From assembly GCA_965263035.1 (NCBI GenBank), contig OZ253580.1:1088001-1152000 (forward strand): DNA of 64,000 nucleotides, given 5' to 3'. This DNA is from Acidobacteriota bacterium. Its GTDB lineage: Bacteria > Acidobacteriota > UBA6911 > RPQK01 > JAJDTT01. The notes below the pieces were generated by a model. The model made no database searches. It saw nothing but the letters and a program-made list of their open reading frames with translations, and was not told the origin of the DNA. Positions 63,206 through 63,907 of the stretch are shown one piece after another; position 1 is the first letter of the stretch; every line of letters begins with the position of its first letter. The translations under genes and the position numbers were made by a program.

Positions 63206-63907
63206 GTGGATCGGGTCGAGTGCAGGGGATTGCGCCCCTGCACCCTCCCACACCACCGGACGTACCGTTTTCAGTATCCGGCGGTTGGAGTCACTCGAGG
63301 CTCTTTCGAGCCTCGTAAAGGGCCTTTCTTTCCGGTTTTCGCCGCCGCTGGGACTTGATCTCCGCCCTTCCGGCTTGACGGGTTCCACCCTTGGGCCTTC
63401 CGTGCCGGGTCCGAGGGGCCTCCCCCCGCCCCGTTTCCGGAGGTAGTTGCGATCCCGCTGACGAGTCCACCATAGGGCCAGTCCGACTCCTTCGGTCCTT
63501 CGCTCCACCGGCATTATCCGGCTTCTTCGCTACTATGACCTCTGCTGACTTCTCAAAGGCTCTCACCCTTGAGATCTCCCCGAGTAAGGTGCTGCATCTT
63601 TCCCCCCGGGCCGCCCGGCTCTACCTGGTACGTCTGGATGGGGTTCGGGTTTCGCTGTTGCTCGCCAGCTCACCGCCCGCACCCGGCCTCGCTGCCGGTT
63701 CGTGTTCCTGCGGTCGTGGGTTTGCCTTCCGCTTCCTTCAGCTTCACCTCGCGGCTACGCCTTGCGGTTCGGCTAGGGTTGGTCCCATCACCTCCCTTGG
63801 GATCTTTCATCCCTTAGATACAGCCCATGTCGGGCGCACGAGCGGGGGTTTGCAACCCCCGATTCCGGGTCGGTGTTGAAGAGGGGGACAAGAATGTCCC
63901 CTCCCAC
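63206..63907. repeat. Inverted REP pair (REPIN-like) with GTGG feet; the first REP is split by the intron
   Basis: Removing the intron gives GTGG|GAGCGGGGGTTTGCAACCCCCG. The second REP on the minus strand reads GTGGGAGGGGACATTCTTGTCCCC (63907-63884). Confidence 0.65.
63210..63839 (-). mobile_element. ORF-less group IIC intron, 630 nt
   Basis: Begins GTGCGCCC; contains GAGAAGTCAGCAGAGGTCATAGTA; domain V AACCGCCGGATAC-TGAAAACG-GTACGTCCGGTGG (63286-63251) with CGC triad; domain VI ends ACCCGAT; no RT ORF. Confidence 0.88.

Follow-up and report, generated by a model that had tools for sequence, protein, structure and literature searches.

A group IIC intron family that probably homes to the foot of repetitive extragenic palindromes in an Acidobacteriota genome

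Background

Group IIC introns typically follow the stem-loops of terminators 'or other inverted repeats', as the available sections of Toor et al. 2006 (PMC1702495) describe. A sublineage, IIC-attC, inserts at the hairpin of the attC bottom strand with the consensus TTGT/T, the slash marking the insertion point (PMC7923331, available part). Repetitive extragenic palindromes (REPs) are landing sites of the insertion sequences (IS) ISPpu9, ISPpu10, ISPa11, ISPsy8 and IS1397, and a group II intron of Pseudomonas putida KT2440 is tabulated as REP-associated in two of its nine copies (Tobes and Pareja 2006, PMC1525189, article without its additional files). Here we describe a group IIC intron without an open reading frame (ORF) in a 64,000-nt stretch of the genome of an Acidobacteriota bacterium (contig OZ253580.1, positions 1,088,001 to 1,152,000), which is called the window below. 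Very likely the intron is a copy of a group IIC family that targets, in the DNA, the foot of a palindrome of the REP type or of the type of REP doublets forming hairpins (REPINs). A REP-homing IIC lineage exploiting an abundant repeat had been proposed in an original prediction from the letters of the window, and the genome supports this proposal: 23 of the 24 intron copies lie in repeats, the hairpin with its foot is repeated in the genome, and the other copies do not follow ordinary terminators.

As in IIC-attC, a IIC sublineage would have specialised on abundant hairpins of single-stranded DNA that are substrates of a tyrosine enzyme and that take the place of the terminator. The target differs: instead of TTGT/T at attC, it is GCTC/C (or CCTC/C) at the REP foot. 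In place of an integron integrase, a Y1 HUH transposase, the REP-associated tyrosine transposase (RAYT), would act as partner enzyme; and the copies are spread over the chromosome instead of being collected in cassette arrays. TTGT/T is not the site used here, where GCTC was found in 24 of 24 copies; integron integrases were not searched for. With the REP-targeting IS elements and the P. putida intron the family shares REPs as landing sites. Unlike the two of nine copies in P. putida, 23 of 24 are found in repeats here, always at one fixed phosphodiester bond, and unlike the DDE transposition of the IS elements the movement would be retrohoming, with an RNA guide that is matched to the foot and changes along with the repeat subtype from species to species. 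A IIC lineage specialised on REPs was not found described in the literature searched, the nearest being the table row in PMC1525189, whose additional files may say more. New here are the near-total specificity for one bond, the match of guide and foot, the covariation of the guide with the repeat subtype and the dominance of ORF-less copies.

Results and discussion

The window intron is read on the minus strand. Its parts and those of the flanking palindromes are the following, in window coordinates:

63885 to 63907, minus strand: REP unit 1, GTGGGAG followed by GGGACA-TTCT-TGTCCC, inverted partner with the feet outward (REPIN-like); from folding and genome-wide pair counts
63862 to 63884, minus strand: spacer of the REP doublet; conserved at the empty orthologous sites
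63843 to 63861, minus strand: REP hairpin 2, CGGGGGTT-GCA-AACCCCCG, the structure upstream of intron-binding site 1 (IBS1); stem family of 23 loci, also flanking a RAYT gene (L001/L050)
63840 to 63843, minus strand: IBS1, GCTC, formed by the terminal 4 nt of the 5' exon, of which the G is at the same time the final base of the stem; 24/24 copies end in GCTC, complementary to the GAGC loop
63210 to 63839, minus strand: ORF-less group IIC intron, 630 nt; from Rfam, blastn against the genome and the empty orthologous site
63733 to 63737, minus strand: AGGAA motif within CUGAAGGAAGC, region of the IIC-type epsilon' bulge; from the RF02001 alignment, at the sequence level only
63660 to 63663, minus strand: exon-binding site 1 (EBS1), GAGC in the loop GCGAGCAA (63665 to 63658) on the domain I stem GCUG/CAGC; from the RF02001 alignment
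63253 to 63284, minus strand: domain V, 32 nt, CGC (63283 to 63281) replacing AGC, distal stem shortened; from the RF00029 alignment
63210 to 63250, minus strand: domain VI, in which the A at 63216, 7 nt before the end of the intron, is a candidate branch point; from the RF00029 alignment only
63206 to 63209, minus strand: CCAC, the part of the REP foot that the intron has separated from the hairpin, its first C (63209) being IBS3; +1 is C in 23/24 copies, and CTCCCAC is intact in the sister genome L053

The 630-nt intron runs from 63839, where it opens with GTGCG, to 63210, where it ends with GACCCGAT (...GAU), and stands between hairpin-CTC and CCAC, the first bases of the 3' exon (63209 to 63206). 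Both ends agree with the class-C pattern GUGYG...AY. An 8-bp stem (63861 to 63843) closes the 5' exon and is followed by CTC (63842 to 63840), so that the predicted hairpin-CTC end of the 5' exon is borne out to the base. Two further statements of the original prediction on this site were confirmed, namely that removal of the intron (63210 to 63839) restores GTGG/GAG and the hairpin on the plus strand, and that a second, inverted unit stands nearby (63907 to 63885), at a spacer of about 22 nt. Folded as single-stranded DNA, the two flanking hairpins reach -18.8 kcal/mol (z = -3.17), and 0 of 200 shuffled sequences folded equally well. The Rfam models of domains I to IV matched the intron with 81.4 bits (RF02001) and 47.2 bits (RF01998); the model of domains V and VI (RF00029) aligned at a relaxed threshold with 39.0 bits, its cut-off being 40, over 63210 to 63286 and with its end exactly at 63210. 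Both intron ends are corroborated by the sister genomes L053 and L054, in which the same doublet is uninterrupted and continues as hairpin-CTCCCA(C/T)G and then with window-like downstream sequence; the intron is the sole difference between these empty orthologous sites and the window. In three other sister genomes (L057, L059, L060) the doublet is absent at this locus. The doublet would have been inserted first and the intron afterwards, and the presence or absence of the doublet among the sister genomes may be taken as an indirect sign of a RAYT-dependent mobility of the repeat.

Twenty-four intron copies were found by blastn of the intron against the genome (6.198 Mb, one contig), among them a copy at positions 312469 to 311840 that is 100 % identical to the one in the window. 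All 24 follow an inverted repeat ending in G and then CTC, and in 23 the first exon base behind the intron is C. The hairpins of 23 copies belong to abundant repeat families. At least four stem families are used: 19 sites have the stem CGGCG(A/G)C with the loop AAGAAA, some with a mismatch, one combines a CGGCGGC stem with another loop, two, including the window, have the CGGGGGTT stem, and one a GGGGACA stem. The flanks of related introns, which had been expected to show the same context, agree, since 15 of 15 readable 5' junctions follow a hairpin and (G/C)CTC. Repeat units with perfect stems end either in G (G-type) or in C (C-type) before the CTC. The 18 occupied ones are all of the G-type, while 194 of the empty ones end in G and 145 in C; in this genome no C-type unit carries an intron.

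The repeat that accommodates the introns was defined in a census of perfect hairpins (stem at least 7, loop 3 to 8), which covered 4308 hairpins with 8616 flank readings. CTCC followed the hairpin in 355 readings, the next 4-mer in 93. A census allowing one mismatch had a high background (1.1-1.4 % of any 4-mer) and served solely to compare CTCC with its mirror control: hairpins flanked by CTCC exceed those flanked by GGAG by 467. Both censuses agree with the prediction that hairpin and foot are repeated in the genome. The family comprises about 370-500 units, 373 of these with perfect stems, and a conserved asymmetric foot, CTCC(Y)(R) or (Y)(R)GGAG in the other direction, is common to at least seven stem families. 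Most units are extragenic: by our rough gene calls, described below, 234 of the 373 are intergenic in a genome with 16.7 % non-coding sequence. CTCCCAG is the commonest variant of the foot (39), besides CTCCTAC (18) and CTCCCAC (9). In enterobacterial REPs the foot is the tetranucleotide GTAG or GTGG, and the foot found here differs. The original prediction had regarded GTGG as the conserved foot; GTGGGAG does exist as a minority variant, corresponding to the nine CTCCCAC units, but the conserved part is YRGGAG. Pairs of units within 80 bp of each other are arranged with the feet outward (33) or in tandem (36), never with the feet inward. Five sister genomes contain the same stem patterns, counted for two stem families only, 158-241 times in the G-type and 20-121 times in the C-type, with 0-2 hits for the reversed control.

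Intron and repeats occur together in five of eight other genomes of the genus, which would also be expected if the repeats were a by-product of the intron, e.g., 5' exon sequence carried along in retromobility. We regard this explanation as scarcely credible. About 355 units are empty and only 18 perfect-stem units occupied, the C-type units of this genome have never taken up an intron, and the explanation is contradicted by genome G007, which has 207 + 121 = 328 pattern hits and RAYT genes, but no match to the intron. Because G007 maintains the repeats without the intron, the repeats do not depend on it.

The RAYT gene that the prediction had led us to expect is probably present, in two RAYT-like versions, one intact (224 amino acids) and one interrupted by a stop codon. 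The intact protein matched Pfam Y1_Tnp with 35.1 bits (cut-off 23) and aligned to the TnpA-REP protein of E. coli (4er8, E 0.0011) over the HUH and YI..NP motifs. The interrupted gene (L001/L050) is bracketed on both sides by REP doublets of the window type, GGGGACA... and then CGGGGGTT...-CTCC. All eight other genomes of the genus contain RAYT homologues. At 7 of 12 loci in the genus a repeat unit lies within 100 bp of the RAYT gene, and at three of them (L043, L049, L050) units with the feet outward stand on both sides. An unrelated second group II intron (RF02005, group-II-D1D4-6, 166.5 bits; L002 1121-1344, minus strand, G000:C1 about 2,482,544-2,482,767) begins a few bases behind the intact RAYT-like reading frame.

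The guide sequence of the intron was compared with its target. EBS1 reads GAGC in 23 of the 24 copies of this genome, the last one being interrupted at this position. In all 13 sequences that show both guide and target, EBS1 is GAGG where the intron follows CCTC and GAGC where it follows GCTC. Thus the base at position -4 is read by base pairing, as the compensatory change between species reveals. Five bases are read, (G)CTC/C, and these are the invariant part of the foot of the repeat. The hairpin itself is probably recognised as well, judging from its constancy here and by analogy with the role of the 5'-exon stem-loop in IIC splicing that is reported in the sections of PMC1702495 available. 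A guide that follows the commoner REP subtype gave no simple fit, as the G-type outnumbers the C-type in all five genomes tested, including those with CCTC-reading introns.

For the relation to replication, the minimum (2,873,574) and the maximum (5,540,849) of the cumulative GC skew were taken as origin and terminus; dnaA, at 2,872,067, lies at the minimum. The sense strand of the intron is on the leading-strand sequence, i.e., the lagging-strand template, in 19 of 24 copies (binomial p 0.0066). Empty G-type sites are so oriented in 84 of 194 cases, and the difference between introns and empty sites is significant (Fisher p 0.001). No rule was observed for the orientation towards neighbouring ORFs. 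According to the available part of PMC7923331, group II introns without endonuclease depend on the replication machinery; the strand bias fits a replication-dependent homing and a target that extrudes as a hairpin from single-stranded DNA. The empty units have a bias of their own, opposite to that of the intron: hairpin-CTCC is on the leading-strand sequence in 133 of 355 units and in 38 of the 145 C-type units, which may reflect how RAYT works.

By ribozyme and by protein the intron is a member of class C. Domain V has CGC in place of AGC and two positions deleted in the distal stem, and AGGAA of the IIC epsilon' bulge was matched. The IBS1-EBS1 pairing is short, with the 3-4 bp expected for IIC; EBS3 itself was not located. 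Where IBS2 would be expected, a stem-loop is found in 24 of 24 own copies and in 15 of 15 copies of the relatives. The CGC triad, the distal stem shorter by 2 bp, the AGGAA bulge and the stem-loop for IBS2 are given as IIC features in Toor et al. 2006 (PMC1702495, available sections). Two of the copies carry an ORF for a reverse transcriptase (RT)-maturase of 409 amino acids (from the likely start), in which only the Pfam domains RVT_1 and GIIM were found and no endonuclease domain; the protein matched TIGR04416 with 363 bits. Its best matches among solved structures were the GsI-IIC RT (E 1.6e-133) and further IIC RTs (2.6e-101, 2.3e-85 and 1.1e-82), compared with 8.5e-35 for LtrA of class IIA and 1.2e-30 for TeI4h of class IIB. 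The family thereby resembles B.h.I1 of Bacillus halodurans and GsI-IIC of Geobacillus stearothermophilus, in the class-C RT without endonuclease domain as in the CGC triad, the short domain V, the AGGAA bulge, the 3-4 bp of IBS1-EBS1 with IBS3, and apparently the stem-loop for IBS2. In the 630-nt window copy, domain IV holds no reading frame, a feature that the original prediction does not mention.

The intron family is proliferating and mostly non-autonomous. Two copies encode the class-C RT and 22 do not; the ORF-less form is the one that has multiplied. Nineteen ORF-less copies are clean, with 630-632 nt and 95.1-100 % identity, and the remaining pieces assemble into five longer copies. Two of these are the ORF-bearing introns (1848 nt), with identical open frames, and three are ORF-less copies of 2415, 2401 and 5182 nt that are broken by other insertions of about 1.8, 1.8 and 4.6 kb. 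The broken copies are at G000:C1:3923178-3925592, 3067627-3070027 and 5180457-5185638, and the ORFs within their insertions resemble IS transposase genes, by eye only. Nine ORF-less copies are at least 99.8 % identical. Over the first 517 nt, the ribozymes of ORF-less and ORF-bearing copies share 91-92 % identity. In three species of the genus the ORF-less derivatives have three different deletion junctions (L007, L008 and window 63290-63330), hence the ORF was lost recurrently, at least three times in the genus; in this genome a short GAAA-capped stem takes the place of the ORF. The introns of Thermosynechococcus elongatus and the IIC intron of Oceanobacillus iheyensis are ORF-less families mobilised in trans. 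Like these, the family has more ORF-less than ORF-bearing copies and intact ribozyme ends; it differs from them by the independent loss of the ORF in three sister species and by a ribozyme that has diverged by 8-9 % from the resident ORF-bearing copies. A tblastn search with the IIC RT gave four further loci elsewhere in the genome, at 34-36 % identity, which indicate another intron family. Three genomes of a neighbouring genus (G009, G011, G012) have many 40-nt matches of 85-90 % identity to intron positions 305-344 only, a short dispersed sequence without full introns.

In the mechanism that we propose, the two autonomous copies would supply the RT in trans to the ribonucleoprotein (RNP) of the ORF-less intron. 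The RNP would reverse-splice into the single-stranded DNA of the lagging-strand template, where the REP hairpin extrudes, and would read the shape of the hairpin and five bases, (G)CTC via EBS1 and C via EBS3. The nascent lagging-strand DNA would then prime the cDNA synthesis. Such an insertion would split the foot that RAYT is expected to read.

For the wider relationship, species-representative genomes were scanned for relatives, and a 5' junction with at least 30 nt of exon was readable in 49 of 79 loci. The closest relatives of the protein, with 59-72 % identity, were found in metagenome-assembled genomes of Acidobacteriota, Bryobacterales and Verrucomicrobia. None of the eight relatives with at least 59 % identity has a T-rich exon end; a hairpin and ctc, gctc, gcca or cta precede their introns. 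Below 59 % identity, the exon end is T-rich in 24 of 41 relatives, including those of Alicyclobacillus and of the Burkholderia group with a classic hairpin and T-run. In the relatives of these two groups 6-8 T-rich nucleotides separate stem and intron, unlike the spacer of 3 nt here. Because T-rich exon ends are frequent in the distant relatives and absent in the close ones, the window intron belongs to a sub-branch that left terminators.

Several observations weigh against the reading of the family as REP-homing, and a part of them would suit an ordinary terminator-homing IIC intron. The hairpin-CTCC units would then be terminators of a high-GC lineage, poor in U-tracts and perhaps bidirectional, and mislabelled as REPs. 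Terminator stem-loops are the typical neighbours of IIC introns (Toor et al. 2006, PMC1702495, available sections), and T-rich exon ends do occur in the more distant relatives. The window intron lies downstream of a co-directional gene. The original prediction states that no U-tract follows the hairpin, which is correct as far as the bases adjoining the stem are concerned. Further on, however, at a distance of 14 nt from the stem and 11 nt within the 3' exon, a T5 run starts (63199 to 63195), so that the site could act as a terminator. Genes were called as our own picks of long ORFs with a bias in GC content at the third codon position (4145 ORFs, 83 % coverage); these calls are rough, and they overlooked at least the gene next to the window copy, which renders all figures on intergenic position and orientation approximate. 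By these calls the upstream ORF is co-directional for 11 of the 24 introns, some of whose sites could be terminators, and 79 of the 234 intergenic repeat units lie between convergent gene ends.

Against terminators speaks that the repeat units lack the marks of intrinsic ones, an adjoining T-tract and a common direction with the upstream gene. Four or more T within 25 nt downstream were found for 20 of the 373 units only, the upstream ORF is co-directional for no more than 130 of the 234 intergenic units and for the 11 introns mentioned, and 37 units are located between divergent genes. The units form doublets with the feet outward (33 versus 0 inward) and tandem arrays, and they bracket RAYT genes. 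At the window's locus the doublet itself is an insertion relative to three sister genomes, and the T-rich exon end is missing in all eight closest relatives of the intron-encoded protein. The family is thus set apart from terminator-homing IIC introns by a stem-loop that is a dispersed, RAYT-associated repeat rarely followed by a T-run, and by reading bases that are the conserved foot of this repeat. With hairpin and GCTC before 24 of 24 introns and 23 of these in the repeats, the expectation that the other copies do not follow ordinary terminators was upheld, and we judge terminator homing improbable.

A second group of observations concerns a passive association, in which intron and flanking repeat were copied together by recombination, segmental duplication or the mobilisation of composite REPINs. 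A composite repeat of about 170 nt is present at 24 loci of the genome (e.g., G000:C1:324519, 2447188 and 4234181). Inverted REP units form its borders, GGAG-GGGCGAC... at the left and CGGCGRC-AAGAAA-GYCGCCG-CTCC at the right end, and enclose a conserved core with GTGTAGAGTGGGGACTCCGTCCCC. Nine of the 22 copies having the right end carry the intron, always at that end, far more than the occupancy of about 11 % among G-type REPs overall; this excess is unexplained. Furthermore, the 5' flanks of many intron copies are near-identical over 70 nt. Joint copying is nevertheless very improbable in our view. Immediately behind the foot each 3' exon has a sequence of its own, and the introns are distributed over at least four stem families and one non-REP site. 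Moreover, 13 composite copies with the same right end are empty, the empty orthologous sites differ from the window by nothing else than the intron, and the bias for one replication strand fits retrohoming.

One copy (G000:C1:436206-436835, minus strand) is inserted at a unique hairpin with GCTC/C and is the only one outside the repeat families. It lies antisense within the 3' part of a gene of the zinc alcohol dehydrogenase family (ADH_N, ADH_zinc_N; L141:254-1204, plus strand), an ectopic insertion that disrupts the gene and presumably inactivates it. A frame of 406 codons on the strand of this copy was dropped as a gene candidate, having no Pfam match; the plus-strand frame is the gene of the dehydrogenase family. 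Because of this copy, the feature recognised by the intron is hairpin and GCTC/C and not the REP as such. REPs supply almost all sites of hairpin and GCTCC in the genome, about 200 of them empty, and the intron is therefore in effect REP-homing.

The remaining points on the opposing side concern the stem families, the RAYT-like genes and the activity of the intron. No intron stands at any unit with the stem CGGCGGT (0 occupied, 46 empty), a pattern that is unexplained. The intact RAYT-like protein scored 73.9 bits with the NCBIfam model REP_Tyr_transpos, below the curated cut-off of 80, and within 400 bp of its gene (L038) no perfect-stem REP was detected. The intron is presumed to splice and to move. 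In public runs, comprising three RNA libraries and one other and searched as contigs only, none of the contigs joined 63840 to 63209 or bridged the whole stretch, a result that is uninformative either way. Relative to its flanks, the intron was covered about as deeply in the RNA libraries as in the other run, as is expected of a repeat with 24 copies. In the contigs of the RNA libraries, a segment of about 35 nt in the domain II/III region (window 63492-63528) had a summed depth 30-fold above the rest of the intron; probably this segment also occurs in many other group II introns of those communities.

Conclusions

For target choice, IIC is the least understood class of group II introns, reading only 4-5 bases and a hairpin. 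Two classes of IIC targets are established, terminators and attC sites, and the REP foot adds a third. The natural statistics of this family are unusually clean: 24 of 24 copies use the same bond, the orthologous site is found empty, the guide shows a compensatory change between species, and one replication strand is favoured. They suggest that introns can colonise any abundant hairpin that extrudes, provided that a short guide fits its conserved flank. The REP foot, with its G-type and C-type and its varied stems and loops, presents a natural series of targets for studying what the IIC RNP reads in a hairpin. The finding bears on the safe spread of introns in compact genomes, on the decay or policing of REPs and on the retargeting of pairs of IIC ribozyme and RT.

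More tentatively, and as a possibility that we consider rather unlikely, two systems acting on hairpins of single-stranded DNA may be coupled here, with the IIC lineage as a hyperparasite of RAYT and REPIN. In sister species it would adapt the 4-nt guide to different REP subfamilies (GAGC to the G-type, GAGG to the C-type), split the foot read by RAYT, which could disarm occupied REPs, and may ride on composite REPINs, of which nine of 22 carry it. If so, the number of REPs and the load of introns would influence one another at the replication fork.

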